Source of the DNA: a virus
Taxonomy: Duplodnaviria > Caudoviricetes
Strand: one strand, 5' to 3'
Virus record (IMG/VR): IMGVR_UViG_3300032319_000846
Span: 32,001-96,000 of that record
Length of the DNA stretch: 64,000 nucleotides
Shown here: piece by piece, positions 17,891-57,200 of the stretch
How the letters are laid out: every line of letters begins with the position of its first letter
Position numbering within the stretch: position 1 is the first letter of the stretch
Notes under the pieces: model-generated
What the model was told of the DNA's origin: nothing
Databases searched by the model: none
Seen by the model: the letters and a program-made list of their open reading frames with translations, nothing else
Translations under genes and position numbers: made by a program

Positions 17891-18252
17891 CAAGATACAA
17901 AACACTGTTTGATAAAACTAAACAGCAATGGTGTGAGATTAAAGGTAAGGAGCTTCGATATACAGAAGCTCCTGTATTAAAATTATATAGTACAGATTTT
18001 CCTTATGAAGGATTACCAAGATATATAAAAGAATACATTGTTGTACATTGTGAAGTGAAATATTTGAATATGTATGTTATTACTTCCACATCTCCTACTG
18101 TTTGGAAATCATCTTCTTCATATACAAGAGAGCAGATAGATTTAGTAAAGTCATGTTTAGCAGAAGGAATTAATTGGAGAGCTATTCATAAAAAATACTT
18201 TATAGAACGTTCTCCAAGAGCTATTCAAGAATTAATAAAAAGGATTAAATAA
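17887..18252 (+). CDS. Protein with a C-terminal Myb/HTH-like domain
   Basis: YTREQIDLV...GINWRAI...RSPRAIQ. Confidence 0.6.
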   Translation: MTRYKTLFDKTKQQWCEIKGKELRYTEAPVLKLYSTDFPYEGLPRYIKEYIVVHCEVKYLNMYVITSTSPTVWKSSSSYTREQIDLVKSCLAEGINWRAIHKKYFIERSPRAIQELIKRIK

Positions 18253-18287
18253 AAAAGGAGGGAAATTGATTCCCTCCTTACATTTTT
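18251..18287. terminator. Bidirectional terminator between the convergent gene blocks
   Basis: aaggagggaa-attga-ttccctcctt with an A-tract on the left and a T-tract on the right. Confidence 0.85.
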
Positions 18288-18293
18288 AATTTA

Positions 18294-19547
18294 CTAATGA
18301 CAATTGCAATTTGGAACTGTTGGTGTTTTAGATGTACACTTGCATTGCTCTTTAAAAGAAAAGTATTGATAACAGGACAAAACACTCCATGTTCCATTAC
18401 AATTTATTTTAAATTGGTAATATCCAGAAAGAGATGTTCGATAAACTCCCTCTCCAAGCACATTAAGTTCTATTGTAGCCACTCTAATAGAATTTCTATA
18501 TAATTCCACACTACCTTCTGAGCATCCCTTAAAATCAAATCCTGTGAGTTTATGCACCATTTCATAAGATGTAGAAGCACAATCATTCACCACCACGGAT
18601 TTATTAAGTGATAATCCATTAAATTCTACACTTACATTATATGTAGCTCCTACATCAGGAAGATTCCATACAGCACTTGTTCCTAACAATCCAGAAGAAG
18701 GAATAATAGTTCCTCCTGTAGTGGTGTAAGTGATGAATTTATTAGCTTGGAATATCGTAACATTGTTTTTACTCACTGTATATCCTGAAACTGTAGAAGT
18801 AATAATAAAATCATCACTTGTAATATAAGTACTTAATACGGTAGAAATAGCAGTGAGGTAGTTAATAACACTTACATTAGTACCATTAAATACAAGTTCA
18901 ATATACCCAAGTCTTGTAGTAAAATAATTTAATGTAGAAGGTTCTATTAAAAGAGTGTTAGTAGGTGAATACAAGTTGTTACTCCAATATACACTATTTC
19001 CTGCTGCTGTAGTTTCAGTCCATACACCATTTGTAGAATTTACATTATTTGTATATCCTTCTTCTAAAAATACGTTGGTGCGATTAAAAAAACTGCCATT
19101 TAAAGAAAGTTTTACTATATTTGCACTTGCGGGAGAAGTAGGAGCAAAGAACAATCTTATTCTATCCTGTAAAGTAGGGAGGATAGTAAGCTGCTCATTA
19201 CAAGTAAGAACTTCGGAAGGAAGTCCTAAATTAAATCCTACAGGTAGTGCAGTTTTAGAATTTGAAACATCTGCATTACAATAAGACCTCACTTGCAAGA
19301 TTGTATTATCCTTACTGCTTGAATATCCTACACTGGAAGGAAGTGTAAAATAAAAATATCCATTTCCTAAACTGATTACATTTTCAGAGGGGATAGGGTG
19401 TTGAGCAGAATTTACAACTACAATTAGTTGTTTGTCTTTATATACACCATTACTATCTACCCAACAATGTGTATTTGGAGTATTCCCTACTCCTTGAACA
19501 GAAAAGAATTTATCTCCTTCCTGAAACTGTCTTAATATGAAGGCCAT
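18294..19547 (-). CDS. Putative virion protein, beta-rich with a Cys-rich C-terminus
   Basis: Last gene of the tail block; S/T/N-rich; ends CKC...CNCH. Confidence 0.7.
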   Translation of the reverse strand: MAFILRQFQEGDKFFSVQGVGNTPNTHCWVDSNGVYKDKQLIVVVNSAQHPIPSENVISLGNGYFYFTLPSSVGYSSSKDNTILQVRSYCNADVSNSKTALPVGFNLGLPSEVLTCNEQLTILPTLQDRIRLFFAPTSPASANIVKLSLNGSFFNRTNVFLEEGYTNNVNSTNGVWTETTAAGNSVYWSNNLYSPTNTLLIEPSTLNYFTTRLGYIELVFNGTNVSVINYLTAISTVLSTYITSDDFIITSTVSGYTVSKNNVTIFQANKFITYTTTGGTIIPSSGLLGTSAVWNLPDVGATYNVSVEFNGLSLNKSVVVNDCASTSYEMVHKLTGFDFKGCSEGSVELYRNSIRVATIELNVLGEGVYRTSLSGYYQFKINCNGTWSVLSCYQYFSFKEQCKCTSKTPTVPNCNCH

Positions 19548-30830: not shown

Positions 30831-32387
30831 TTATGATACTGCTATAGATGATGTTCCTGACCAATTAACTTCAATATCCATTGTAGCCGCTAATGCTACA
30901 TTAGAATGTGTTATAGCTACTGTAAATCCGCTTCCACTATAAAAACTATCTATAAGAGGTATCACTGTTGCTCCTGTTATTAGTTGGTCTACTACAGCAT
31001 AATTTTGATTTACCGTTCCTCCTGCACTTACGGTTGCTGTAAAAAATATTTTTTGCATTACAGAAACAGTATTATCATTACTTCTGTAATAAATATTTAT
31101 ATCAGCACTTACAGCATTTGAAGCTCCTCCTAAAGAAAACAAAAGAACATCCTGATTTTGAGAACTTGTAGCAGTAATAGTTTTAACAAATTTTTTAATT
31201 TGGTCTGTTGCTCCAAAAGATATTCTTGGCTCTTGAAATTTAAGATAGTTGTTATATCCTGCTTTAAATATAGTACCAATTGCCTCACTCCATTTGATAA
31301 TATCAATCCATGTATTTGTTCCCCCTTTTGCCTGCAAAAATAAACTTCCTAAATAACTGAAGACACTTGAAAGTCTTGCTCTAAAATTATCTGAATTTAG
31401 ATTACTTCCCTGAAGAGTGAGAGAATTAGGAATAAATCCTAATGTATCTAAATTACTTGTAAAATCTGTTACTCTTTTTGCAAGAATACATATATTTTTA
31501 TTACAGTTTGCAGTTTCATTTAATGTATAAAACCCACTACCCGGAGTTGCTTCATTTGTTTCAATTGCAAAGTTTGAAGCATAATCCAAATCAAAAACGT
31601 GTCCTGACATTGAATCTGCTGTAATTCTATGAATATTGAAATCTTCAGCATGAAACGCTTTAATGTAACTTACTCCTCCTGTTGCCCAACAGAAATTAAA
31701 TGTGATGTTTGTAATGTAAGAAGCCCCTGAAGTCATTCCATCAGCTTTGCATACATACCTACCTCCTGCTGTTTTCATATTATTGAATACAACAAAGTAA
31801 GTACCCCATACATCTCCTGAATTTCCGGGAAGCAATTGGATAATATCTATTGCAGAATTTCCTGAAATATCAAACACACAACTGTTAAAAGAAGCATTCC
31901 AAAGTCCATCAATTTTAACAATAGTGTTTCCTAACGTAGCATTACTGCTTGTCCAGTTTAACCCATCTCCAATAAAGTTTTTCTTTCTTGTCCACAAGAA
32001 TCCTACAGCAGCAGAAGTAGTTACACTAATTCCTTTTCTTTGAATTAAATGTCCACTTTCCATATTAATAGTAGTAGTTAAAGAAAAAGAGTTATTAATA
32101 ACTCCCACTTTTCCTGCTGCGGCATTAATAAATGCTTGAAATCCTGCGTTTGTATTATCAAACCAAGAAGAAAGTACATCTTCTAAATCAATTCTTTTAT
32201 ACCTTGCACCCGATGCAGTTACAATAACTGTCCCTGTATTATCTGTTGATGTAGTATCTGTATTGTCGTATTCAAAAGCTCCTTCTTTTCCATTATCAGA
32301 AAGCCTAACAACAGGATTGTATAAGACATCTATGGTTGTAAATGCTCTTAATTGTGTAAGTGTTCTATTTGATGTATCTATTCTCAT
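30831..32387 (-). CDS. Second tailspike-like receptor-binding protein
   Basis: N-terminal QLR...DNxGTVI...GARYKR anchor domain like that of 23682-26000; beta-helix-like body. Confidence 0.75.
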   Translation of the reverse strand: MRIDTSNRTLTQLRAFTTIDVLYNPVVRLSDNGKEGAFEYDNTDTTSTDNTGTVIVTASGARYKRIDLEDVLSSWFDNTNAGFQAFINAAAGKVGVINNSFSLTTTINMESGHLIQRKGISVTTSAAVGFLWTRKKNFIGDGLNWTSSNATLGNTIVKIDGLWNASFNSCVFDISGNSAIDIIQLLPGNSGDVWGTYFVVFNNMKTAGGRYVCKADGMTSGASYITNITFNFCWATGGVSYIKAFHAEDFNIHRITADSMSGHVFDLDYASNFAIETNEATPGSGFYTLNETANCNKNICILAKRVTDFTSNLDTLGFIPNSLTLQGSNLNSDNFRARLSSVFSYLGSLFLQAKGGTNTWIDIIKWSEAIGTIFKAGYNNYLKFQEPRISFGATDQIKKFVKTITATSSQNQDVLLFSLGGASNAVSADINIYYRSNDNTVSVMQKIFFTATVSAGGTVNQNYAVVDQLITGATVIPLIDSFYSGSGFTVAITHSNVALAATMDIEVNWSGTSSIAVS

Positions 32388-39900: not shown

Positions 39901-41570
39901 TTATACCTTGCTTCATCATATTCAGAATAAATAAGTTCATCAGGATTAGCTGCAAAATGTACAGGAGTTCCAAAATAGTTTGTAGTAATGTAGGTCGAAG
40001 AATCTAATTCTGTAACATCATCTATTATTTGTAAAGCATCAAAATTATCTGTTTTAAGAGTTTTAGTTTTATACTGCATCTTATCAAATGATACTTGAGC
40101 TTCTTCTTTTGATTTTTTATCAAATCCTGTAGCTTCTAAAACATCTGCCATATTATTAGCATTTTCTGTTTTAGTCATATAAAGGTCATTAAGATTTCTC
40201 TTTAAAAAAGCTGTAGTAAAAGCTAACAACTGGTCACTGCTATCTACTGCTGCTCCTAACCATCCTGCTAAAAAGCTGCTATCTTGGTCTGCATTTTGTA
40301 ACAGATTTCTAAATTGCTCTTCTGTATATTTGAACTCTTCAGTTTTAAAGCCTTTTAAATATTCAGGATAATAAATAGAAACAGCTACATCCAAGAAAAG
40401 CTCATTAAATTCTAATTGTAAACTTGTTCTTTTTTTAAGAGCTTCTTGTAATTGTGAGAAAATTGGAGGGTATTTTTTCTTTGATTTGGAAAGAGTGTTT
40501 CTTACATCATCAAATAGATTTTTAATATCTAAATCTGTTCTTTCATTAATTGCTTCATATAATTTAGCATCACTATCTAAAAATCCTTCCCATACACCAT
40601 TAGCATTTTTAACAGCAAGATTAGTAAGAATTTCTTCTTTTTGTTCTTCTGTAAGAGCATATTTAGTAAACAAATCTTCTAAACTTATTCCGAGCTTTTC
40701 TCTATCATAATTATCAAGAGCTCTTGGTTGTAAGGAAGCGTATTGAGGAAGCTTTATTAACTCTTGATTAATTGTTTCTAATTCATCAAACATGTGATAA
40801 AAACTTCTTCCTTGTTCTAACAAATTAGCAATGCTTCGTAACTCTATTTTTTTATCTTCTGAATTTGTTGGGAGATTTGCAAGTCTTTCTTTCACTCCTA
40901 AGAATTTCTTATCTTTAGTTCCCATCAATTTTTTAGATAGATGGTCAACTTTATTAACACTTCTCACAACATAAGAAGAAAATCCTAACATTTTTTTATA
41001 AAATTCAGCAGAAGATAATTGTCCTACTATTCTTTTTATATCACTCTTTCTATCCCCAATTTCATAATCATCTGAAAGGTCTTCAAATACATTTAAATAT
41101 GTAGTAAGTTTTTGCTTAATACTATCAAAAATACCAGTGAAAACTTCCTCATGCTCCTCCACTTCATCTTCCATTTCATTTGCAATGGATTGTAGAATGT
41201 TAGTGTTAAACATATTTTCATAAAAAGCTTTGTCAAGCTCCATATCTTCTGTTACACCACTACTATCATTAAGAACATTTATTCTAACTCTGTAAGCTAT
41301 AATATTGGTTTTTCCTTTGCTATCTACTTTTTCAACAGGGTACAAGAAAGCTTCATTAGATGCATCCAGTGAATAGCGTATAAAATCCTCTGCTTCTCTT
41401 TTCATAGAAGGATATACAATAAGTTTTCCTTCATTCCAATAAGAAATTTTGGAATCAATTAAAGCTTTAGCAAGAGTTTGATGTCTTGTTGTTTTAGCTG
41501 CTTTTTCATCTTGATTTAAAGCTGCTTTATCTATGTATTCAAATTTACAATCTTTCATCCTATAAGACAT
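36990..41570 (-). CDS. Large virion cargo/ejection protein (crAss-like)
   Basis: 1526 aa, helical; adjacent to the vRNAP; GRLMMMYKKY...RF...EEGY motif seen in crAss-like cargo proteins. Confidence 0.7.
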   Translation of the reverse strand: MSYRMKDCKFEYIDKAALNQDEKAAKTTRHQTLAKALIDSKISYWNEGKLIVYPSMKREAEDFIRYSLDASNEAFLYPVEKVDSKGKTNIIAYRVRINVLNDSSGVTEDMELDKAFYENMFNTNILQSIANEMEDEVEEHEEVFTGIFDSIKQKLTTYLNVFEDLSDDYEIGDRKSDIKRIVGQLSSAEFYKKMLGFSSYVVRSVNKVDHLSKKLMGTKDKKFLGVKERLANLPTNSEDKKIELRSIANLLEQGRSFYHMFDELETINQELIKLPQYASLQPRALDNYDREKLGISLEDLFTKYALTEEQKEEILTNLAVKNANGVWEGFLDSDAKLYEAINERTDLDIKNLFDDVRNTLSKSKKKYPPIFSQLQEALKKRTSLQLEFNELFLDVAVSIYYPEYLKGFKTEEFKYTEEQFRNLLQNADQDSSFLAGWLGAAVDSSDQLLAFTTAFLKRNLNDLYMTKTENANNMADVLEATGFDKKSKEEAQVSFDKMQYKTKTLKTDNFDALQIIDDVTELDSSTYITTNYFGTPVHFAANPDELIYSEYDEARYNAESRTFYHLLDKQVHDVVQKLKLRNDDGSVISVEDFYAELKTLVPNIPNLEKMVTAYINKEKVLTPEIYDAIVNFNYSGIRNIVKAIYQIDFNSARWQLKSQLEIEQEQKSLGLLNIDFSQEGTKLTNLRERKNFKKNVSSNEIKWYGETTSSLGYTIKNKFDRLFGKNHKFLIEGDTTIESKEILVQTTDGKYKWMKVEKITNRNAVGEEYSYANFPEGGTENVAKFHTYKGVFQTFTDAYKLPLPNFTKQEKQMFDFIKIMVKDARTKFGNAAALTPYITYRDEQSFWSKAVKNPKGTIRGFVKEVIDLKPEPDSYPLMKNGINVDFNGKPVKTPIYVSRKQYDLSSKTIHTIKANYNNFVPVEQRNRNLAEVALLYSNEATTYSKQREMLPQINLLRTIVEGDEKAKISTNGAVLGRKTRAKNNLGKMLFGKQGQQEVVKAEKLNKQLNNVVNQLFYMEAEADKVWDLGITQISANKLSRKISGFQNLQVMLWNVSTMLPNFSIATIQMRSQAVMELYYTVSDFNKSFLDVFRNRIPTFFSDITKLRNKDKSLLAQIAIRYNAIQGEVMDAHGIVHKDDLANKFFSNATFFNQNTIEFLNQILTMQMVMRGFKLPTGGSLWDAIDPTWKAGEEFRYSPAIVAQISNFKEIELDFMARLQKINRDLHGAYAKEDKNELQRLWYGRLMMMYKKYLYPSYRSRFTEMQHSFELKDVEEGYVRTYFKEIFKEFRGLAEQKTLVEGLVESGWKKSLLTFGKGMAKINLAALDAASFRLLSKNVKSVDDYLYGETLDERKRKAMMRATWEMGALIQWMILTYVLSALADGADDDSVEQKVLQTLEINAFRMQSDLGMYLPFVLAPLAQGSLPGGYTIDSATRIYKDPFTTVRMIDQTSGFFHQLIGVDITEDGLDFAFNDVYDRAGYGYEKGDSKLLHKGYRVFLSPYWQMIKMMSPEEQLQYMELLNKNSR

Positions 41571-44500
41571 TCTTTAGTTATATTTTCATCTCCTCCAAAA
41601 TCTTCCCAAGTGATTTCTGGTTGTACTTGTTTTTTCATCTTTAAATTAAAGTTTTCTTCAATAACTTGTGTTGTTGCAGCTACTACCTCATCATATAATG
41701 TATAATTAGTTCCTGTAAACCATCTGGAAATAATAGCTACAATTTCATCAAATAGATTTTTGTATTTTTTTCCTTCAGAAGGAGGATATTGTTTTAGATA
41801 TTTGATAAAATCAGAATTTGTAAACACTTCTGTAGCCATTTCATAAACATCTTTAATTCCATAAATGTCCTCTTTCATTGTAGCATTTACGTAATTATAA
41901 AGCTTCACAAAATCTTGAGAAATAGTAGATTCTACTCTGTTAATTTGGTCAAATGTTAAAGCATGTACAATCTCATGTAAAATTGTAGATTCTCCATTAC
42001 CTTTTGGAAAAGTAATTTTTTCTGAAATTTCTATATAAGGTGCTGTTCCTGTTAAAATTCCTGTAGAATAATATCCTCTTTCTGTGGACTTACTAAGACC
42101 AACTTTAGGAATAAGTTTTACAGGAATATCTTCACTTCTTTTAGGAAGTTTTGTTAATAAAACTTTAGATAATAAACTAAAATATGGATTGTTAGCTTGT
42201 TGTATATTTTGTAAAGCTTCTTTAATTGTAATAACATCTTTTCCTTTAAAAATTCTTTCCCTTAATGTAGGGTCAGTAGCTAAAGGTCTTGTATCATCTT
42301 TTCCAGTTTGATAGTCTAACAAATAATCATTTCTGTTATCAGAATTAAAATCATCATTATTTACTTCAACATCATCAAATGGATTATACTCAACATCCTC
42401 ATTAGAAAGAAATCCTGTAAAATCTTCTTCAGTTAGTACATAAGTGTTAACATCATTTTCCACTTCTTCATTTAATTGTGGGGTTTCTTTTACAGCTATA
42501 GTTTCTTTTGTTTCAAATTCATATTTATTAATTAAATAATCTAAAGCATTAGCATGAGAAGGTTCTCCTAATTCTTTATAATATACAATTGGTTTGTTTT
42601 TTAAAACACCTGATTTTAATACTTCTCTAATCCATTGTGCTCTTTCTTCTTGAGAATTTAATACCCAATCAATATATCTTTCAACACTTTCTTTAGTAGA
42701 ATTTGTTTTAATTAATCCATCTTTTTCCACTAATTTTTTATCACTACTAAAAGGATTTCCAAAATGTTTATTTTTTCCATCTACTCTTAAACTAAATACT
42801 CCATCAATAGATTTAGCATATTCTACACCTGCTTTTTGATAAACAGATTTAATAACAATATTTCCTGATTGTGTTTTAATAGGAAGTTGAGAATAGATTA
42901 GACTACTATTTTCCTGTTTAGAAGTTGTATATAAAGATAACTGTTCTTTAGCTTTTTTATAAGCTGCTACTAACACTTTAATAAAATTACTCTCTAATCC
43001 TTTACCTTCCCATCTTGAGTTTTTTGTTCCAACAATATGTGAAGAGTTTTCAATAAATTCAATACCTCCTCTTTTATCTATCTCTTGAATAAGTTCTGGA
43101 TATTTTAAGAATTTCTGAATTTGTAATTTAGCCATTAAATTCATATCATATTTCAAAGCTTCTTCAACAGCAAGTTGTGGAGCAGTTTTTAAACTTTGAT
43201 TAGCTTTATAAATACTTTCCACATCAAACATATTTCCTTTACTATCAGGAATCTGATATTTTGAATAAGTTGGGTTTGTAAGTGCTTTTCCTAACCAATC
43301 TGAAGATTTACTAAATATATTTATACCTTTTAAAGTAGAAACCCCTTCTTTGGGTTTTTCAAAAATAGAAAGTTGCATTTTCTTAGGGGAAGTTGTTAAA
43401 GTTTTTCTTTCTCCTAAAGATACAAAATTTACAGGAACATAACTAGCTTTTCTTAAACTTTGTTTTCTGTAATTGTGAATATTTTCCACATCTCTATAAG
43501 TGTTATATCCAAATAATCCATTAACTCCTTGTTCTAACATTCCTACACTATCTAATTTATAAAGCTTTTTATCATTTACCAAAAACAAAGGTGCAGCAAA
43601 TACTTGATTTGTATCTACAACTTTAATGTAAGGAAGAAGTGAGTTTTTAGCAAATAATCCAAAAATACTTTCTTTATCTTCTTCTTTTTTATTTTCATTT
43701 GATTTCTTTAACAATGCTGTTGCTTGTTCCAAATCTACAGTGATTCCTTCATTCCTAACACTCACTATATTATAAGAATCACCTTTGTAGTTTATAACTA
43801 TACTGTCTTCTGCTTGAGGAATATATTTCATATTATTCTTATTTAAAGCAAAAGCTGTAGTAGCATCAATAACAGCAGCATTCATCTGCTCCTCATTAAA
43901 GAATTTACGACTTAGATAGTCCTCTAATGCAGCAGAGTGCTCTTTAAAGAAGAAAGGAGAGATAGCTTTAGATAAACTACCTTTTCTAAATAACCATCCA
44001 TCTTTTACAACAAAATAAGCAAACAATTCATCTGCAAGCTTTTCATCTACTGTTACTTCTACATTATCAATTGTTTCTGTAATGTTTAAATTAAGTGTAC
44101 TTCTGAATAAGCTTTCAAATCCATCAATTAAAGAAGTTTGGTCTTTTCCACTCATCTTACTGAATGTAGGAATCTCTAACACTCTTGCAGCAGAGTTAGC
44201 TCCAAATTTAATTTTATTTAAGAATGTATTTTTCTCAAACACCTCTACACTTGCATCACCTTTGTTTTTGTCAATATATTGAAGTAATGCTCTAATTTTA
44301 TTAACTACGACTTTAGTATTATCATATACTTCATTGTAAATAGAAAGTTTAGCAGGATTAACAGTTTCAAGATAATCGTAATACAACTTAGAATATAAAT
44401 AAGACATTAACTCACTATCTACCACCTCTTTAAATCTCCTACTGTTAGAAGTTTTTAATTCATTCTTTACTCCCTGATAAAACTCTTTAGTTTCAGGTTT

Positions 44501-47500
44501 ATAATGCACAAATAAATCCTGCATCTTTGTCTCTAAAGCTGTTTCAGGATTGTTGAATAAAATGTTTGCATAATTAGTTAACTGCCCATCAAAATATTTT
44601 ATCTTAGTATGTACATCTGTATAAGGTTCAGAAGGCATTTCTTCAGGAAACAGTTTAGCATAAGAATCGAGAAGCTTTTCCCAATCATCTGTAGATTTAC
44701 CAATTCCTCTTTTAAGTTTTATAAAATCCATAATAGGATTTATTTCTTCCATTGTTTTAAGAGCATTAATAGCTGCTCCTACTACTTCTCTTCCTACTTC
44801 TGATATATTGGTTTTTAAATCAGAAATAATATTTTCTTGTGTAAACTCTTTCTTTGAAATTGGGATTACGTTACGTAATTTTTCAAGAATTTCTATATCT
44901 TTATCATATCTTCTTTTTTGTTCAGCTTCATTCTGCACTTTGTTCTCTTTAGTAGAAAGCATATTAAAATATCCTTTCAAACTTGGATGATTAACTACAG
45001 CAATAGCAACTTTCATACTATGTCCCTGTAATAATAAAGGAACCATAATATTTAATCTTGGAATAGTAAGATTGTATTTGGCATTTTGTTGGTCTTTAGC
45101 TTCATCTGTAGCAGCAGAGATAAGGGTACTTATCATATCAAATAACCTCTTACCTCCATATACATAATCCTTAACAGAAGAATTTCCAACTTCTTTTTCT
45201 CCGTATTTAATAATTGTAGGATATAAAAAGTTAACGTTCATCCTTCTCAGTGCAATTGCAAGTAGGTTAGCGTTTACAGATACAGCAATATTCTTCTTAC
45301 CTGTTGTAGTATTTTTATGAGAAAGTGATTGAGCTAACCAAGAGTGAATTGAATATACAAAGTTTTTATTAAATATATCAAGATTTTTAAAATCAGGGTC
45401 ATTAGCAAGTGTTTCTTTTAATTCGTCCTGTGTTGCAGGAGTTTTGTAAATAGCCTCCACTTTATAATACCCTTCTTCATCTTTATATTCAGATTTTTCT
45501 ATTTGTTCTCCCTCTGTATTAAAATATTTAGCTTTAAGGGTTTCATCATTTGTAAGTGCAAGTTGTCTAATTTCTAAGATTTCATTATTAATAGCTCCTA
45601 TATTTTTTGTATAACTCTCTTTATATTCCTGCTCTGTAGAAGGAAGTTGTAATTCTTTTAAAGAAAGCTCAATTAAATCCTGTTCGATTTCATCAAGTTC
45701 CTGTAGTCTTAATAATGTAGTAAGTCTGTTATCTTTTAATTTAGCAAACAGATTTCCTGTTTCAGGATTGTATTCTAAATCTTGTTCTATTTTTTCTTCA
45801 ATAGTAAATTCTAAATCTTCAATTTGTGTTTGAAGTTTTTTAATTTTTTTTGTATAACTACCTTTTTTAGTAGAAGGTTGTTCTTCTCTTTCTTCAATAA
45901 AATCATCTACTTGATTTATTAATATTTCTTTTTCTTCTTCAAGTTTTTTAACATCTAAAGAAGCATAGGTTTCTACGTATCCTTTAAAAGCAGATTCATA
46001 TTGTTTTCTTAAAGAAAGTAAAATTCTAATTTGTTCTTTTTTGTTATTATAAAATACATCCTCTTTCTTTTTTCCTTTAACAATTCTTTTTAAAGCTTTG
46101 TTTTCACTTGTTTGAAACTCCACATAATCTTCCCAAGTGTCTGTATACTTAGTTCCATCTTCTTTTAACTCAGGTTTGTTTAAGAACAATTTATCAATGT
46201 CAAAGTCACTACCTGAAAGTTGTACAATTTCTTTAGCTGTAATAATAGTGTTTCCATAATATTCAGGAAGTGCATCAACCCATTCAATATTTACAGCAGA
46301 GTGTTTATCTTGTGAAGGAATTCTCACTCCTTGCATCCATCTACTATCATTTGTAATTTTAATCTTTGGATTATATGTAGGAAGCATTGCTTCTGTAAAT
46401 GTTCCCAAGTGAGGTTTGTCTTTATTTACTACACCATTAGCATCTACATTCCATCTTGGTTTGTTATGTCTTAAATCATCTATAAAATAAGCACCTTCTC
46501 CCAAAGCTTTAAGTCGCTGCACTAATGCTGTATCTTCTGTAGCAAAATTAATTTGTTCAAAATCATCTGTTTCATCATAGATGAAATTCTTTTCATTATC
46601 ACTAAAGTCTAATATAGAAGCTTCATCTAATTGTTGTTTCCAATCCTCAGTGTTTCTTTGAACTACTTCCCAACTATATACATCTCTTGTTTCTCCATCT
46701 TTATTTGTATACTTATATGTAACAACTCTTTTTAAAGGTTTAAAACCAAAAGAAGAAACGTGAGCTAATGCATCTCCTGCTACTTTTTGTTGTAATACAC
46801 CTTTTGAAAAATGTGAAAAGAAAAGGTTGACAAATTTTTCAAGTGTGATACTCATATTAGGATTGTACACTTTATTTCCATTTGCATCAGGAGTATAGAA
46901 TGTAAGAGTTTGAACATCCGCTCCAGAAGAAGCAAGAGTGTCTTGTGCTTTAGATAAGAAGTTTTTCCATCTAAACCCCTTACTGTCGTATAACTCCTTA
47001 GTAGCTTGTAAAAAAGCAGCACTATCTCTTTGAGAAAGAAGATTTTGGTATTCCTGTAATAAATCTATTTCTACTTTAGTTTTTCCATCTTTTATAATAA
47101 CAAGCTTTCCTAATTCATTAACAACAATTTCCTGATTTTGTGAAGGGTCAAATATTCTTAATTTTCCAGCAGGGTTTTCCATTTGTAATCCATAGAAATC
47201 TGCATCTATTTTCATAATACTGTTTCTAACATCTTCTTTAATATTAGATGAGGTGTAGTCAGCATTATACATGTTAGCTGTAAGCATTTTAGAAGTAGAT
47301 TTAGGAGCATACAAATCAAATCCATGCTCATACATTGCTTTTCTTACACCATGTAAAAATTCACTTCCTTTGATTGGTTTCCAGTTCTTTTCATCTAATA
47401 ATGTAGCAATTTGTTCTGCTGTATAATCTTCCAATTTCTCAGGAAGCTCTTTTCTTGAGATTTTATTTCCTTCCCTATCTGTTAAAACACCTGTAAAAAT

Positions 47501-50500
47501 AGACGTAACATCTTTAGTAAGCATCATCGAACCTGTTTTAATATAGATGTATCCATCAAATCCAACAGGTTTATCTACATTGAAATAGATGTTATTTTTC
47601 TTTAAATAAGCTTGCTCTTTATTTGAAACTTCCACTCCATATTCAATTTTAGTAAGAATATCAGCAACAGGTTTTGTAAGTTTGTTTTGAGAATGTAGGA
47701 ATTTTCTTTTCATATCTACTGATTGCCATGTTTGAGCATCAGCAGCATCAATCTTTCCATTATCAACACCTGATAATTGTACTATTTCATTTCCTACCAC
47801 AACTCTCACTTCTGCTGTAGGAGTGTTAACTCCAAGTGCAGCATTAGTAAATCCTGTTTTCATAGATACAATAGCAGCATTTCTACCCCCAAATCTTTTA
47901 TTCATATCTACTCCATCATTCTTATACAATAGGGCATTATCCCCATGTATTAATTGATTGATGTAGATAGCGTTTAACATACTGGATAAAAAGTACTCTT
48001 TTAGTTCAGCATATTTAACATAAGGATTGTATGGTAGGAGTTCTCCTACAAGTATTCCTTGATTTCTTAACTCTGTAAGATGTGCTTGGTATAACAATTC
48101 ATATTGTGAAGCTACAGTGGTAATAGTAGAATTAGCAAATGTTAAATCAGGGTTTTCTAAAGCTCTTTTTCTTATTGTTTCAGTTTCTTTATTTTCCATA
48201 AATCCTTTAAGGGCATCAGAAAATTCTAAAGCTTTTGGACTTCCTTTTGTTACATTAAATCCTATAAATTGTCCTTCTCCATTGTATTTAGGAAGCACTC
48301 TTCCTGTATGAAATCCTTCAAAAACATCTCCAAACTTTTGTTTTACACTTGGATTAGAAGAAATAAGTGCATTAGTAATTAGTATATATTTTTCTCCTGT
48401 TTTTTCATCTGTTTTAATTATACTTTCTCCTAATGTAACAATAGCTTCTGCTATTTTAGCAGCTTGTTCTTTTATTCTGTTATACTCCTTTTTAATTTCA
48501 TCTTTAACAAGATTTTCTGTAGCAGGAGTCATTACTCCTTCTATGAACAAATCTTGTGTTTCTATTACTTCTTCAGGAATTCCGTTTTCATCTTCTATAA
48601 TCTTTGTAATTTTATTTTTAACATCTATAATCTCAACAAAATCTGCTGTTCTTTTAGCTTCTAACACACCAACCAATAAAGGTCTTACTGTAATACCATT
48701 TTCTTTTCTTTGTGTTTGTCTAAAAGCTAAATTCAATCTAAGAACATTAAAATCTTTATTTGTCATTCCTCCAAATGTATTAGCTTCTTCATTGAAATTA
48801 ATACCATCAATAGAAATGTGTTTTAATTTAGTAAGGAACTTTTTCCAATTTTTATCTGCAAACTTTTTAACATAATAATTTTCAGTAAAAAATGGTTTGT
48901 TGGATTCAAGAAATTTTCCATCTGCATACTCATGTGTAACCCCATCAACTTTATCTTCCCACCATTTCTGGTTATGCATAAAATAGTTTAAATAAGCTAA
49001 ATGCTGAGTTTTATATTGATATGTGTAGATGTTTTTATTTTCTGCGTTTTTATAAGAAGATTCTATAAGAGCTTCATCAAAATAAGCATTGATTTCAGCT
49101 AAATCTTTAGATGTTCCTGCTTCATTCCAATTGGTAATTTCATCAGCAGTTATTTGAGGAAAAGTTTTAGTAAATAAAGAAATGATAGGGTCTATATTAT
49201 ATTCTCCAATATACTCTTTAAATGTATAATACTCAGGAAAGAATTTTCTTATTGCTTCTTCTTTAGCCGCTAGCTCTTCATCTGTTTTAGATTTTGTAGA
49301 TTCTTGTCTTTGAGCTATAATATATTTTAGTGTATGATTGGATATTTGTAAATTAAAAGTACGCTTCAATCTTTCAAAAGCATTGTATTGATTAAATAAT
49401 GAAGCATAATCTTTATTACTTAATGCAGAAATATCTGTTCCTTTAGCTACAACTTTTTTCTCTTCTCTTGCAGCAGCAAATGTAGAAAGTCCATCTTTAA
49501 ATTGTCCAATTTGATTATTAACTACAGAATTACTGTTAGCTGAAAACACTTTAGATAAAAGTTTTCCATCTTTACTGTCTATTGTATTAACCCAATTATC
49601 CCTTACCCAAAAATCAAATCCTTTAAGAACACTTTGAAGAATGTATTTTCTATCTTCTCTTACACCTTCTAAATTATTAATTAAACCAATGTCTTTATAT
49701 CCACTCTCTTTAATTTGTTGATGTATCTCATCTATGCTTGCTTTAAAAGCTTCTTTAGATGCTGTTGTAGGATTTTCCAATACATCATCCATTATCTTAT
49801 TAAAGAAAGATGAAGATGCAGAATTTCCTTCAATACTAGAGAAATCTTTTAATCTCTTGAGTCTCTCTCCTTCATGTTGAGAATTAGAAAGTGCTCTTGC
49901 AAGTCCATAATACACTCTGTTTGTATCAACCACTTGAATTAAAGGAACTTGTTTTGAAACTCCTCCTAAATCTATAGCGATAAATACAGGATTATTAAAT
50001 TCATCATACACCAAATCTCCTGTAGTTCCAATATAAGCTTTTAACCATTTGCTCATACTATCTTCCATACTTTTTTCATTAGCTGATGTAGCATCACTCC
50101 AGAGTTGCATCTGAGATTCTTCATCATCTTGTTCATCTAAGTTTTCATTAAACTGGTCATTAAGGTATTTTATAACATCTTCTTTTAAGTTATTATAAGA
50201 AGGATTTGGGGTGTACACTTCTTCATAGTCATCATAGGTTTCTTTTTTCAATAAAGGAGCAAGTTTTTTCCAATTTTCTAAAGCGATATTAGGAAGACTA
50301 TCATAAATCCCTTTTAACACAATATCCATCACTTCAGATTTTTTGATAGAAATATCTTCAGATTCTTCTACACTATCTTTTAGTTTTAGATATACTTGAG
50401 AAATGTTTCTTATAATTTCTTGTGATTCTTGTGCTGACAATAACACTTTATTATCATTTTCATCTCGAAATTCAATCAATCTTGTTGTGGGAAACTTATC

Positions 50501-51250
50501 AGTATTCTCATTTACAATATTTGATTTTCTAAACTTTCCATCATTTATATCTTTGAAGAAGAGTTCAAGTTTAGTTCTGTTTCTTAGCGAACTATTGAAT
50601 AGTGAGCGTATCCAATTAAAGAATCTTACAAGTAAACTCTTAGCACTTGTTGGAAGAGCTTTAATAGGAAAATCTGCAATTTGTTGTTCTAAAGATGTAA
50701 CAGGATTATATGAATACCAATTAACAAATTTATTAGCAATAGTTTCTTCATAAGCTCTATCCATAGCTTCTCTATCACTCATTTGTGAATAAGTAGTTGG
50801 ATATTTGCTTCGTAAATCTTGTATATACTCTTTAACTGTCGCATTACCAAGCTTACTAATAAGAATTTGCTTTCCTATATTTAAAAATTCCTGCTTTCTA
50901 TCTCCTGTAATTAGAGTTTGAAATATAGCGTGGAAAGCTTCTTCAGCTATTTCCTTTTTTGTTGAATTTTCACCAAAATAAAGAACATTATTAAAAAAAG
51001 CTGCTTTAGCTTCTTTTGGTAATTCTGCTACAATGTTATTAATATTATCAATAGCAAATACACCTTGAGGTAACAAGCGATAGGTTTCCTCGTGTAGTTG
51101 AGAATCTGATAATACTGAAAACTCTGTATTCTCAAAAGCAGAAAGAGAAGGTAGCTCATCTCCATGTTTTACATATTGTTCTACAGTGAACTTTGCTCCA
51201 TATTTTTTACTCCAATCCAGAAAGTTCTGGTCAATTCTGATACATGACAT
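41555..51250 (-). CDS. Virion-packaged RNA polymerase polyprotein (phi14:2 gp66 / crAss-type) with zincin-like and accessory domains
   Basis: GVRIPSQ...SGSDFDIDKLF (DFDID at 46193-46207); KRFGG and ADAQ motifs; HEIVH zincin motif. Confidence 0.9.
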   Translation of the reverse strand: MSCIRIDQNFLDWSKKYGAKFTVEQYVKHGDELPSLSAFENTEFSVLSDSQLHEETYRLLPQGVFAIDNINNIVAELPKEAKAAFFNNVLYFGENSTKKEIAEEAFHAIFQTLITGDRKQEFLNIGKQILISKLGNATVKEYIQDLRSKYPTTYSQMSDREAMDRAYEETIANKFVNWYSYNPVTSLEQQIADFPIKALPTSAKSLLVRFFNWIRSLFNSSLRNRTKLELFFKDINDGKFRKSNIVNENTDKFPTTRLIEFRDENDNKVLLSAQESQEIIRNISQVYLKLKDSVEESEDISIKKSEVMDIVLKGIYDSLPNIALENWKKLAPLLKKETYDDYEEVYTPNPSYNNLKEDVIKYLNDQFNENLDEQDDEESQMQLWSDATSANEKSMEDSMSKWLKAYIGTTGDLVYDEFNNPVFIAIDLGGVSKQVPLIQVVDTNRVYYGLARALSNSQHEGERLKRLKDFSSIEGNSASSSFFNKIMDDVLENPTTASKEAFKASIDEIHQQIKESGYKDIGLINNLEGVREDRKYILQSVLKGFDFWVRDNWVNTIDSKDGKLLSKVFSANSNSVVNNQIGQFKDGLSTFAAAREEKKVVAKGTDISALSNKDYASLFNQYNAFERLKRTFNLQISNHTLKYIIAQRQESTKSKTDEELAAKEEAIRKFFPEYYTFKEYIGEYNIDPIISLFTKTFPQITADEITNWNEAGTSKDLAEINAYFDEALIESSYKNAENKNIYTYQYKTQHLAYLNYFMHNQKWWEDKVDGVTHEYADGKFLESNKPFFTENYYVKKFADKNWKKFLTKLKHISIDGINFNEEANTFGGMTNKDFNVLRLNLAFRQTQRKENGITVRPLLVGVLEAKRTADFVEIIDVKNKITKIIEDENGIPEEVIETQDLFIEGVMTPATENLVKDEIKKEYNRIKEQAAKIAEAIVTLGESIIKTDEKTGEKYILITNALISSNPSVKQKFGDVFEGFHTGRVLPKYNGEGQFIGFNVTKGSPKALEFSDALKGFMENKETETIRKRALENPDLTFANSTITTVASQYELLYQAHLTELRNQGILVGELLPYNPYVKYAELKEYFLSSMLNAIYINQLIHGDNALLYKNDGVDMNKRFGGRNAAIVSMKTGFTNAALGVNTPTAEVRVVVGNEIVQLSGVDNGKIDAADAQTWQSVDMKRKFLHSQNKLTKPVADILTKIEYGVEVSNKEQAYLKKNNIYFNVDKPVGFDGYIYIKTGSMMLTKDVTSIFTGVLTDREGNKISRKELPEKLEDYTAEQIATLLDEKNWKPIKGSEFLHGVRKAMYEHGFDLYAPKSTSKMLTANMYNADYTSSNIKEDVRNSIMKIDADFYGLQMENPAGKLRIFDPSQNQEIVVNELGKLVIIKDGKTKVEIDLLQEYQNLLSQRDSAAFLQATKELYDSKGFRWKNFLSKAQDTLASSGADVQTLTFYTPDANGNKVYNPNMSITLEKFVNLFFSHFSKGVLQQKVAGDALAHVSSFGFKPLKRVVTYKYTNKDGETRDVYSWEVVQRNTEDWKQQLDEASILDFSDNEKNFIYDETDDFEQINFATEDTALVQRLKALGEGAYFIDDLRHNKPRWNVDANGVVNKDKPHLGTFTEAMLPTYNPKIKITNDSRWMQGVRIPSQDKHSAVNIEWVDALPEYYGNTIITAKEIVQLSGSDFDIDKLFLNKPELKEDGTKYTDTWEDYVEFQTSENKALKRIVKGKKKEDVFYNNKKEQIRILLSLRKQYESAFKGYVETYASLDVKKLEEEKEILINQVDDFIEEREEQPSTKKGSYTKKIKKLQTQIEDLEFTIEEKIEQDLEYNPETGNLFAKLKDNRLTTLLRLQELDEIEQDLIELSLKELQLPSTEQEYKESYTKNIGAINNEILEIRQLALTNDETLKAKYFNTEGEQIEKSEYKDEEGYYKVEAIYKTPATQDELKETLANDPDFKNLDIFNKNFVYSIHSWLAQSLSHKNTTTGKKNIAVSVNANLLAIALRRMNVNFLYPTIIKYGEKEVGNSSVKDYVYGGKRLFDMISTLISAATDEAKDQQNAKYNLTIPRLNIMVPLLLQGHSMKVAIAVVNHPSLKGYFNMLSTKENKVQNEAEQKRRYDKDIEILEKLRNVIPISKKEFTQENIISDLKTNISEVGREVVGAAINALKTMEEINPIMDFIKLKRGIGKSTDDWEKLLDSYAKLFPEEMPSEPYTDVHTKIKYFDGQLTNYANILFNNPETALETKMQDLFVHYKPETKEFYQGVKNELKTSNSRRFKEVVDSELMSYLYSKLYYDYLETVNPAKLSIYNEVYDNTKVVVNKIRALLQYIDKNKGDASVEVFEKNTFLNKIKFGANSAARVLEIPTFSKMSGKDQTSLIDGFESLFRSTLNLNITETIDNVEVTVDEKLADELFAYFVVKDGWLFRKGSLSKAISPFFFKEHSAALEDYLSRKFFNEEQMNAAVIDATTAFALNKNNMKYIPQAEDSIVINYKGDSYNIVSVRNEGITVDLEQATALLKKSNENKKEEDKESIFGLFAKNSLLPYIKVVDTNQVFAAPLFLVNDKKLYKLDSVGMLEQGVNGLFGYNTYRDVENIHNYRKQSLRKASYVPVNFVSLGERKTLTTSPKKMQLSIFEKPKEGVSTLKGINIFSKSSDWLGKALTNPTYSKYQIPDSKGNMFDVESIYKANQSLKTAPQLAVEEALKYDMNLMAKLQIQKFLKYPELIQEIDKRGGIEFIENSSHIVGTKNSRWEGKGLESNFIKVLVAAYKKAKEQLSLYTTSKQENSSLIYSQLPIKTQSGNIVIKSVYQKAGVEYAKSIDGVFSLRVDGKNKHFGNPFSSDKKLVEKDGLIKTNSTKESVERYIDWVLNSQEERAQWIREVLKSGVLKNKPIVYYKELGEPSHANALDYLINKYEFETKETIAVKETPQLNEEVENDVNTYVLTEEDFTGFLSNEDVEYNPFDDVEVNNDDFNSDNRNDYLLDYQTGKDDTRPLATDPTLRERIFKGKDVITIKEALQNIQQANNPYFSLLSKVLLTKLPKRSEDIPVKLIPKVGLSKSTERGYYSTGILTGTAPYIEISEKITFPKGNGESTILHEIVHALTFDQINRVESTISQDFVKLYNYVNATMKEDIYGIKDVYEMATEVFTNSDFIKYLKQYPPSEGKKYKNLFDEIVAIISRWFTGTNYTLYDEVVAATTQVIEENFNLKMKKQVQPEITWEDFGGDENITKECLIG

Positions 51251-54200: not shown

Positions 54201-57200
54201 AGGTATTCTTTCTTGTAACCATTCTTTTCTAAATAAATCCACATACTCTTTAATTTTACCTTGTTCAAATTTTTGTTGATTTTCAATCCCTTTAATAGAT
54301 TCAGCTTGTTCTATCAAATCAATAAGTTTTTTAGGTAAATATTTTTCTACTAATTTTCTACCTTGTTCTTTATTAATTATTAAAGCATTGCCTGTTTCAG
54401 GGTCAGTTGCTTGAAATTTTCCATTTTTTTGTTTAGGAAAAATATCCCATTTTTTACCTGTAAATTGAACAAGAACTTCATATTTATCTCCCTTTATTTT
54501 TATTCTATAACCACTAGATTGGTCAGGAGGATAAATATTTAATACCTTTTGTAATCCTAATTCTTCTCTTCTTCTTTCTATATCAGCTTTCTTAGCTTCT
54601 ATTCCAGATTGAGTAGTAGATGTAGATTGTTCTTTAAATAGTAGGGATTCTACTGCTTTTACTAATTCAGGATTTGAATTATTTATTTTCGCTTTTACAT
54701 ATTCTATCGCTATCTTATTTTTCTTAATGGCATTTGTTTTATCTCCTGTTAATTCTGCTAAAGCTAATTTATCTGCATTTGGCATATTCTCTAAAACAGG
54801 TTCTAAGACAGAAGAAATTACTTCTGCCCCTTTCATTAACTTCTGTTGGTCTGAAAGATTTTTATCATTAACAACTTCATCCAACGCTTTAGCCGTACTC
54901 TCTACACTTAATGCAGGGTTATCTACTACACCACTACCTACTTTGGGTGTTTCTTGTATTTTTTTATTTAATGAACCTTTTCCATAAAAAGATTTAGCGT
55001 TATAAATTACATAAAAAGGAGCTATTTTTTCATTATTTTCTCCTAAAACATGATTCAATATTTTAACACCATTAACTGTATTATTATTTTTTTGAAAGTC
55101 TGTAAATAAAACCATTGAATCTCCGGGATTTATATTTAAAGATTCATTAAAATCATCATAATTTTCAGACAATATAAATCCTTGCTTTTTAAGTAATATT
55201 GAAATTTCTTTCCCTGTTTTGTTTGAATCAATCTCAATAAAATCTTTTTCATCAATTTCCCCCTCTATAGGATTTCCATATCTGTTAATTAAAAAAGAGG
55301 TGGAATTAGAAGATACATTTAAGCCATCTCCAAATTGACTTATTTGTTTTTTTCCTCTTTGAAAATTATTAAAATCAAAATCTTTAATAGGTGTTTTGGT
55401 ATGATGATAAACAGTTACTATTTTAGATTGTGTAAAAGATTTAGCTTTATTAACAGTAATTCCATCTCTCAATAAATTTTCTACAAACCCTTCCTCTAAT
55501 TCATATACAGGAACATTTCCTAATGTAGCTTTATTCTTCTTGTTTACAATTAAATCTATTGTTGTAAATTTAGAAAGTACATTAAGATTTGAAAACAACA
55601 CTACACTGTTTTTATTTTCTTTAATTACATCTATAAGTAGATTCTTGACGTTTTCACTTTCTGCTTCTGAAAAATTAATTCCTGCATTTGTTAATACACC
55701 AATATAACCAGATGTTTCAAGTGTATTAATTTGTTTGTTATATTTTTCATTAATTTTATTTTCAACTTCTTCTTTAGAAACAACATTATCATAACTAAAA
55801 ACATTTGAACCATCAGAAGCTCTCCAAGCATAAGAGGTTTTACCTCCACTTATTCTTTTAATTCCACTTATAGATTCTAATTCTTTTTTTCTTCTCCTCT
55901 CTATTTCTTCAACAGTAAAAGATAATAAAGGATATTTCTCCTGTAAGTATTTTACAATTCTATCATCTGCTTCAATAACAGGAACATTTGGACTATACTT
56001 ACTGACAAAATCACTTTTACCACTACCTGCTTCTGCATATATAAGAATTCCTCTTTCACTACCTTCTTTTCTAAGATTTAAAATAGATGGATGTATTTGA
56101 AATTCGGGTTTTGTTTTATCTGCTTGTGGAAGCTCTACATCCCATTCATCCTGTGTACTGATTTCAACAGGTGAAACCCCTAATGCTTTATTTAATTCTG
56201 CAAGAGTTTGAAAGCTTTGTGTTGGAACAATATTTATAGGTGAAAAGAGTAATTTACTTAAATATCCTTTTCCATCAGGTTTTAATGGATAATAATTCTT
56301 ATCTGTAAACTCTCCATTTTCGTAAGAATTAGTATTTCTACCATATCCTTTTCCATCTGCAATAAAATAAACATTCACTCCTTTTATAGGCTCTACAATT
56401 TTTGTTGATGAAGGAAGAAGGGTTATTTTAGTTTTATCATAAAGGATTTTAGTAATTGGTCTTTTTACTTTTCCATCAGCTTGTAATTCCTGTATATATT
56501 CTTTTCCTTTTTCAGGAATAATTTTCCAGAACTTACCACTATACTCATAAAAATTTGCTTTTTCATTTACTTTAACAGCTTCTACTTGGTCTTTTTTTAC
56601 CTGCTTTATCTGCTCTTTAGCAATTGCTTCAGGAATATCTTTAGAATTATTTTCTGCAACAATTCCATTAAGAATATCATCATCTAAATTAGAGGATTTT
56701 ATAACATCTTTATTTTCTTCTATTTTCTTTTCAAGTTCCTTTTTATTTGTAACATCACTAAAGAATGCCTCTCTATCTTTAATAAAAGTTTCAAACCCTG
56801 ATTGTTTGTCAAGAGCTTTATAAATCAATTCTGTTTGTTTAATACTTCTATCTAACAATCCCAAATCAAATGCTCTTTGTAATTTATCAGGAATATCATC
56901 AACAGTTTCCTGTGTAAACGCTTCAAATGTAGCTCTCACAGCATCTACATATTCTTCCTCATTTTTTACATCTAAATTCTTTTTAGCATTTTCAAGAGCT
57001 TCTAATTGTGTAAGTTTCAAAGTTTCAAGATTTCTATTAAAAGCTCCAGCTTCTCCTGAAAGAGGAATAGCATTAATAGCAGCAATTTCTCCTTTTAGTG
57101 TTGTAATTTTACTATCAATAAGCGTTTTAAACTCAGAAAGAGATTCAGATGCAAGTTTAAAGAAATCTTTATATTGTCCTAATTCAGAAGCTATTTCATT

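Follow-up and report, generated by a model that had tools for sequence, protein, structure and literature searches.

The giant open reading frame and its NADAR-fold domain

We analyzed a stretch of 64,000 nucleotides (here called the window) that covers positions 32,001 to 96,000 of the IMG/VR virus record IMGVR_UViG_3300032319_000846, a tailed-phage record (Caudoviricetes) of 138,178 bp with an estimated completeness of 93%. The window contains a run of giant open reading frames (ORFs) of 846, 2693, 3231, and 1526 amino acids (aa), of which the 3231-aa ORF (P0001; window positions 41555 to 51250, minus strand) is the subject of this report. This protein resembles crAss-type virion RNA polymerases, and near its C terminus it carries a 143-aa NADAR-fold domain, module A (aa 2636 to 2778; 42917 to 43345, minus strand), which is followed by a DUF4326-like module (module B), an acidic linker, and a zincin-like domain. 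A sequence-only reading had placed a NADAR-like domain at 42950 to 43330. The strings that it quoted (GINIFSKS, LTNP, DVESIY, LMAKLQIQKFLKYPELIQEI, IENSSH, SRWEGKG, and NFIKVL) are the exact, stop-free minus-strand translation of that interval and lie in frame within the 3231-aa ORF, so the observation is real; the location was right, and the extent of the domain is slightly wider than had been proposed.

Family libraries did not detect module A. Pfam returned no match at an E value of ≤1, and PHROGs and NCBIfam returned none; the gathering score of the Pfam NADAR family (PF08719) was not reached, and only 2 of 30 family members got to an E value of 0.12. Likewise, there was no match when module A was compared with PDB sequences (phmmer) or with 50,697 GenBank phage records (tblastn), and a Pfam NADAR search across the whole 138-kb virus record found no further NADAR. 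A phmmer search of 1.84 billion proteins nevertheless collected 299 representative clusters at an E value of ≤1e-3, including 35 at ≤1e-30. Some members lie inside giant proteins, at many different positions, and others are stand-alone proteins of 126 to 160 aa. When the window domain was aligned with 29 family members that are short or stand-alone (alignment A1), six positions were invariant (L22, E43, K78, G93, G94, and H103), and AlphaFold2 run on A1 produced a confident model of module A (predicted local distance difference test [pLDDT] score of 92.8; predicted template modeling score of 0.86). The 299 clusters, the invariant or nearly invariant positions, and an alignment that folds with this confidence place module A far beyond chance.

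Structure searches with this model identified the fold. In a VIA-align comparison with 48,161 PDB representative chains, the three NADAR entries among them took the first three ranks: 8BAU (Z score of 9.4; root mean square deviation of 3.1 Å; alignment of 123 of 143 residues), 2B3W (YbiA; Z score of 8.9), and 8BAT (Z score of 6.7), with the next chain at a Z score of 4.4. Foldseek against the full PDB again returned 8BAU, 2B3W, and 8BAT as the top three, with probabilities of 0.82 to 0.84 yet E values of 0.15 to 0.7, and Foldseek against BFVD returned many viral proteins named NADAR, together with segments of crAss-like phage giants. The sequence-only reading had suggested structure prediction and a Foldseek search against NADAR as the test of its proposal, and NADAR entries indeed rank at the top. 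The predicted structure thus shows module A to be a real NADAR fold, of the α+β YbiA type in which small β-hairpins flank a helical core, self-contained and representing a divergent, compact subfamily.

Profile comparisons support homology between module A and NADAR. The best PDB match of the A1 profile was YbiA (E value of 0.018), in an alignment that placed Glu43 on the Glu of "SEHYFQAQK" and kept the "KF..P.L" helix in register. Pfam does recognize NADAR modules in related giant proteins, including aa 3066 to 3200 of P0003 (51.1 bits against a cutoff of 35.1) and modules of the P0027 type (27 to 29 bits). Aligned with the Pfam-validated modules, among them that of P0003, A1 matched over the whole domain (hhalign, 95%; E value of 3e-8; 120 columns), and with the P0027-type modules alone it reached 92.7%. 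The claim of a NADAR-like domain is therefore upheld for both fold and homology by the AlphaFold2 model, the structure searches, and hhalign.

Two more specific assignments were rejected. By sequence, module A does not belong to the T4 gp30.3 family: it had no match to PF08010, on which T4 gp30.3 itself scores 237 bits, and its hhalign comparison with that protein was out of register at 7.9%. Nor is it a DarG1-type NADAR antitoxin, as it has His in place of Asp, the neighboring ORFs contain no Pfam families, and it forms an internal part of a 3231-aa protein.

Polymerase identity and cassette mobility

The fusion partner had been named a virion RNA polymerase, and two findings bear this out. 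The ORF contains a DFDID motif at aa 1682 to 1686 (46193 to 46207, minus strand), and DFDxD is the catalytic signature of crAss-like virion RNA polymerases (bioRxiv 10.1101/2020.03.07.982082). When aa 1 to 2600 were compared with GenBank phages by tblastn, all 32 records matched were crAss-like phages, and nearly all of the matches fell in genes annotated "putative RNA polymerase." The similarity to crAss RNA polymerases was restricted to aa 1617 to 1710 (35 to 41% identity; E value of 4e-6). Since PHROGs and Pfam gave no match in the first 2300 residues, the ORF appears to be a distant member of this polymerase group. Three metagenomic orthologs (P0003, P0004, and P0005) are 79 to 88% identical to it across aa 1 to 2772. 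Naming the 3231-aa ORF a crAss-type virion RNA polymerase homolog is therefore reasonable on these sequence matches, and by analogy with relatives such as that of phi14:2 (bioRxiv 10.1101/2020.03.07.982082), the protein is probably packaged in the virion and ejected.

Comparison of the orthologous polymerases showed that module A behaves as a mobile cassette that is present, absent, or relocated. The ortholog P0005 (79% identical) lacks module A and passes from "SPKKM.L" to "IYSQLP" through a 14-residue linker; BLAST segments and the junction of this indel put the limits of the cassette at about aa 2628 to 2782 (42905 to 43369, minus strand). P0003 and P0004 (85 to 88% identical) keep module A, diverge completely past aa 2772, and have a second, Pfam-type NADAR 230 aa downstream of module A. 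In P0016, the polymerase backbone is 32% identical, yet module A is 78% identical and lies at the extreme C terminus, while in P0122 and P0123 module A lies near the N terminus; seven proteins contain two copies each. These presences, absences, and changes of position indicate that module A moves horizontally between polymerases and between positions within them. The closest ortholog, P0003, thus has two NADAR versions in one polymerase, at aa 2704 to 2839 (module A) and aa 3066 to 3200 (Pfam type).

A second apparent indel polymorphism lies in the polymerase core region. It concerns a block of 127 aa, coiled-coil-like and rich in Glu and Lys (aa 1732 to 1858; 45677 to 46057, minus strand), that begins about 45 residues past DFDID and is missing from P0003, P0004, and P0005, the 79 to 88% identical orthologs. 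Downstream of module B, the ORF continues with an acidic low-complexity linker seen in the translation (aa 2926 to 3000; 42251 to 42475, minus strand) and ends with a candidate zincin-like domain (41558 to 42250, minus strand), which was recognized from the motif HEIVH (aa 3092 to 3096; 41963 to 41977, minus strand) and a weak SprT-like Pfam match (E value of 0.075). PHROG 2206, "virion RNA polymerase," matched in this zincin region only (E value of 3e-4; profile positions 2042 to 2248). A motif scan of the 3231-aa ORF found none of the Q-[MFY]-G-G joints reported for neighboring cargo proteins. Elsewhere in the window, strand and composition switch sharply at about 18000 to 18300: the DNA before about 18.2 kb carries small plus-strand ORFs at 26% guanine-plus-cytosine (GC) content with positive GC skew, and the DNA after it carries minus-strand structural and giant ORFs at 29 to 38% GC with negative skew.

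Putative active-site residues, module B, and proposed function

The NADAR active site includes a Glu (E43 in the P. nicotianae protein and E88 in E. coli C7 NADAR) and a Lys at +7 (K50 and K95, respectively) (PMC11543638, PMC11125620, PMC12945103), along with a residue in the last strand whose identity varies: YbiA-type proteins have Glu there, DarG1-type proteins have Asp, and phage NADARs have His (PMC11543638, PMC11125620). We located candidate equivalents in module A by profile alignment and counted them in 158 copies of the domain. Glu2678 (domain position 43; 43217 to 43219, minus strand) would correspond to the conserved NADAR Glu; it is Glu in 148 copies, and it also aligned with the Glu of an "SVE..Q..K" motif in giant-protein NADARs. 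Lys2713 (domain position 78; 43112 to 43114, minus strand), in the "KF..P.L" helix, is Lys in 156 copies and invariant in A1. His2738 (domain position 103; 43037 to 43039, minus strand) lies on the last strand (assigned by DSSP to positions 102 and 103) and is His in 147 copies. Its counterpart in the alignment with Pfam-validated NADAR modules is the His of "LTH.QD..W," at the Glu/Asp position of the YbiA and DarG1 types, and T4 gp30.3 has "KHS" at a comparable place. Trp112 is present in 149 copies and Gly93-Gly94 in all 158. The counts were similar in copies within proteins longer than 1000 aa, which argues for a maintained active site.

Module A is a core-only domain of 143 aa with no extensions. 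Because it has a last-strand His and lacks the central helical insert of other NADARs, we classify it, from its aligned residues, as a compact His-type NADAR and not as a YbiA Glu type or a DarG1 Asp type. This classification alters the catalytic assignment of the sequence-only reading: the first Glu (Glu2678) is conserved, and the conserved last-strand residue is His2738 and not a Glu. The glutamate of the "E-x-S" pattern that the sequence-only reading had noted (the Glu of FIE, domain position 99) is present in 69 of 158 copies and is not conserved in the family.

With moderate confidence, we favor the reading that module A is an active N-glycosidase delivered with the polymerase that reverses the marks of host ADP-ribosyltransferases (ARTs). 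On this reading, module A would enter the cell with the genome as part of the packaged and ejected polymerase, before phage gene expression. It would remove ADP-ribose from nucleobases in DNA or RNA (guanine-N2 type), with Glu2678, Lys2713, and His2738 as putative catalytic residues, and so might clear incoming phage DNA or early transcripts of the ADP-ribosylation that host ART defenses of the DarT1 kind had put there. The adjoining DUF4326-like module might then handle a related ADP-ribose product. Published work provides precedents for several of these steps. The His-type NADAR T4 gp30.3 (AdfN) hydrolyzes guanine-ADP-ribose on DNA and RNA and counters DarTG1 (PMC11125620, PMC11825919, PMC11833690), all NADAR families tested biochemically remove ADP-ribose from guanine in DNA and RNA (PMC12945103), and NADAR proteins have been predicted to be packaged in virions (PMC9503650).

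Several points weigh against this reading. In this copy of module A, Gln replaces the Lys at +7 from Glu2678, a Lys that is essential in the E. coli C7 NADAR (PMC11543638); there are Lys residues at +4 and +10, and across the family Lys occupies +7 in 75 of 158 copies. The Asp five residues past the last-strand position is missing, as is the central helical insert of canonical NADARs (30 to 60 aa, between the two main helices). The residue equivalences given above come from profile alignments and not from superposition with an ADP-ribose complex, so they are to be read as predicted, and no credible profile alignment with T4 gp30.3 was obtained. T4 gp30.3 and YbiA, in a single study, were active in vitro and yet did not rescue cells from DarT1 toxicity (PMC11125620), so that activity is no guarantee of counter-defense. 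Finally, Iyer et al. (2022) proposed that phage NADARs act mostly on soluble ADP-ribose derivatives (PMC9503650).

The residue changes raise the question of whether module A is a hydrolase at all. A catalytically altered NADAR fold could serve as a binding or structural module, either a reader of ADP-ribose or nucleic acid or an adaptor for packaging or ejection. The loss of the Lys at +7 and the Asp at +5, the Ser at domain position 101 where the family frequently has Cys, and the embedding of module A in a structural, ejected protein would all fit such a role. We consider it improbable, since Glu, Lys, His, Trp, and Gly-Gly are conserved over the 158 copies, stand-alone proteins included, as expected of a conserved active site, and since His-type NADARs are active enzymes (PMC11125620).

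An active module A might instead be directed at the phage's own marks. The sequence-only reading had suggested a writer/eraser pair in which the NADAR limits or reverses modification by an ART-like module in the neighboring cargo gene (window positions ~54980 to 55420). Polyvalent proteins often contain ARTs (PMC5512222), and toxin-antitoxin systems that pair an ART with a NADAR are known (PMC11125620). The 2693-aa neighbor, however, matched no Pfam family at an E value of ≤0.01, and its ART motifs are degenerate by the account of the same reading. Co-occurrence of the two activities in related phages had also been proposed as a test; by precomputed Pfam domains, none of the 120 related giant proteins listed had an ART family, and so none combined NADAR with one. 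With no Pfam family in the neighbor and no ART in the listed relatives, the idea is without support, and module A moreover occurs in many contexts, including stand-alone genes. We regard this explanation as very improbable.

Module B (aa 2779 to 2925; 42476 to 42916, minus strand) contains the motifs HFGNPF and YYKEL.EPSHA.ALD.LIN. We describe it as DUF4326-like on the basis of a weak Pfam match to PF14216 (E value of 0.052; 14.7 bits, below the cutoff of 25), an AlphaFold2 model (pLDDT score of 94.1), and a Foldseek search of BFVD that returned mostly DUF4326 proteins (top probability of 1.00, but E value of 4e-3 and TM scores of 0.44 to 0.49). Among solved structures, there was no match above a Z score of 3.6. 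The best of these weak scores belong to NADARs (8BAT, Z score of 3.6; 8BAU, 3.0; 2B3W, 2.4), and HFGNPF resembles the NADAR "LSNF/LTNP" motif; NADAR and DUF4326 may be distantly related. Module B is 55 to 70% identical in more than 100 giant proteins and also occurs in stand-alone proteins of 130 to 155 aa. Its carriers differ widely in backbone, making it an unusually conserved mobile module; one relative (P0118), of 4885 aa, is encoded on a Moraxella bovis contig of 2.7 Mb and bears the annotation M15 metallopeptidase.

In DNA viruses, DUF4326 frequently occurs in fusions with NADAR, SLOG, and Macro domains, and it has been proposed to act on ADP-ribose products by processing their ribose-linked phosphates (Iyer et al., 2022; PMC9503650). 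In the module A family, the two modules are usually apart: module B directly follows module A in only 3 of 157 copies, those of the window protein, P0128, and P0135, which rules out a fixed cassette of NADAR plus module B. Among 116 module-B proteins, the window protein is the only giant with module A immediately upstream of module B. A different NADAR version directly precedes module B in 21 of the 116 giant proteins that have it, and the NADAR-module B pairing therefore recurs independently. Two other conserved domains, about 170 aa in length, occupy the position just before module B in most giants (a P0044-seeded cluster of 42 proteins and a P0023-seeded cluster of 33); neither has a Pfam annotation or a relation to module A (hhalign, below 1%).

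The NADAR and the DUF4326-like module could act together on a substrate other than nucleic acid, namely soluble ADP-ribose derivatives of low molecular weight that host TIR, ART, or sirtuin systems might supply, for example, as immune signals or toxic products, with the NADAR cutting the N-glycosidic bond and the DUF4326-like module processing the ribose-linked phosphate. Iyer et al. (2022) proposed such a role both for the NADARs of phages and for DUF4326 in its fusions with NADAR, SLOG, or Macro (PMC9503650), and both the direct succession of the modules here, in P0128, and in P0135 and the recurrence of module B after the other NADAR version are consistent with it. Against it stand the activity of every biochemically tested NADAR family on guanine in DNA and RNA (PMC12945103), the lack of a demonstrated soluble substrate for any phage NADAR, and the scarcity of direct A-to-B successions. 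We view the soluble-substrate explanation as doubtful, although it is the strongest competitor of the favored one.

Within the favored reading of delivered counter-defense, a more elaborate version can be imagined. The polymerase-tethered NADAR would act in cis at first transcription, stripping ADP-ribose from the template or from nascent early transcripts, the DUF4326-like module would clear the released product, and module A would be a new, library-invisible subfamily specialized for this task. We regard this version as improbable.

A literature search by titles and abstracts found no paper that appeared to describe a NADAR in a crAss-like polymerase. Counter-defense by phage NADARs, the predicted packaging of NADAR, Macro, and Nudix proteins, polyvalent injected proteins, and NADAR-DUF4326 fusions have all been published, and the present finding extends a known theme and opens no new one. 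What it adds is a divergent, compact, library-invisible His-type NADAR family and a clean presence/absence polymorphism among near-identical polymerases. The family comprises at least 299 clusters at 50% identity, many within giant phage proteins, and since Pfam, PHROGs, and NCBIfam all miss module A, phage NADAR surveys count too few of its members. Should the domain be active and reach the cell with the polymerase, it would provide protein-level immunity against ADP-ribosylating defenses before phage transcription, the stage at which DarT-type systems act. The polymerases with and without module A represent natural isogenic comparisons for counter-defense.

Comparison with known systems

The giant ORF resembles the crAss-like virion RNA polymerase gp66 of phi14:2 in being large, in having the DFDxD motif, and in lying in the giant-gene block of a crAss-like genome. 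It exceeds gp66 in length by about 1000 aa and, unlike gp66, ends in a succession of NADAR, DUF4326-like module, and zincin, and its similarity to annotated crAss RNA polymerases is detectable around the catalytic loop only.

Among characterized NADARs, T4 gp30.3 (AdfN; PF08010; PMC11125620, PMC11825919) is similar to module A in design. Both are minimal, core-only NADARs of about 140 to 150 aa with a last-strand His ("KHS" in gp30.3 and "SSH" here), and both are phage encoded with a likely counter-defense role. The two have no detectable sequence-profile relation, however, and the +7 Lys is replaced by Gln in module A; T4 gp30.3 is a free early protein, whereas module A is a cassette inside a giant virion polymerase. 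The canonical NADAR/YbiA family (PF08719; 8BAU, 2B3W, and 8BAT; PMC11543638) has the same fold (Z scores of 9.4, 8.9, and 6.7, respectively) and the common motifs "LSN/LTN," "E..Y," "M...KF..P.L," "G," and "W.G.G." In contrast to that family, module A has no Pfam match, lacks the central helical insert of ~30 to 60 aa, and has His for the YbiA-type Glu.

The NADARs of other giant crAss-type or polyvalent proteins (P0003, aa 3066 to 3200, and the P0027 type) are homologous to module A by profile comparison, have a His-type "LTH," and lie in the same context of giant phage proteins; the P0027-type NADAR, like module A here, is directly upstream of a DUF4326-like module. Unlike module A, they are visible to Pfam and have retained both the central insert and the Asp that follows the His, whereas module A is shorter and constitutes a separate family that includes stand-alone proteins.

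Like the polyvalent proteins of phages and conjugative elements described by Iyer et al. (2017; PMC5512222), the window ORF product is giant, probably injected, and multidomain, with a zincin and with effector cassettes that have been shuffled; the domains that those authors list do not include NADAR (0 mentions). A NADAR next to DUF4326, as in the window ORF, is an architecture already described by Iyer et al. (2022; PMC9503650). The same authors characterized viral NADARs as "typically standalone" outside RNA virus polyproteins, whereas here the carrier is a predicted crAss-type virion RNA polymerase.

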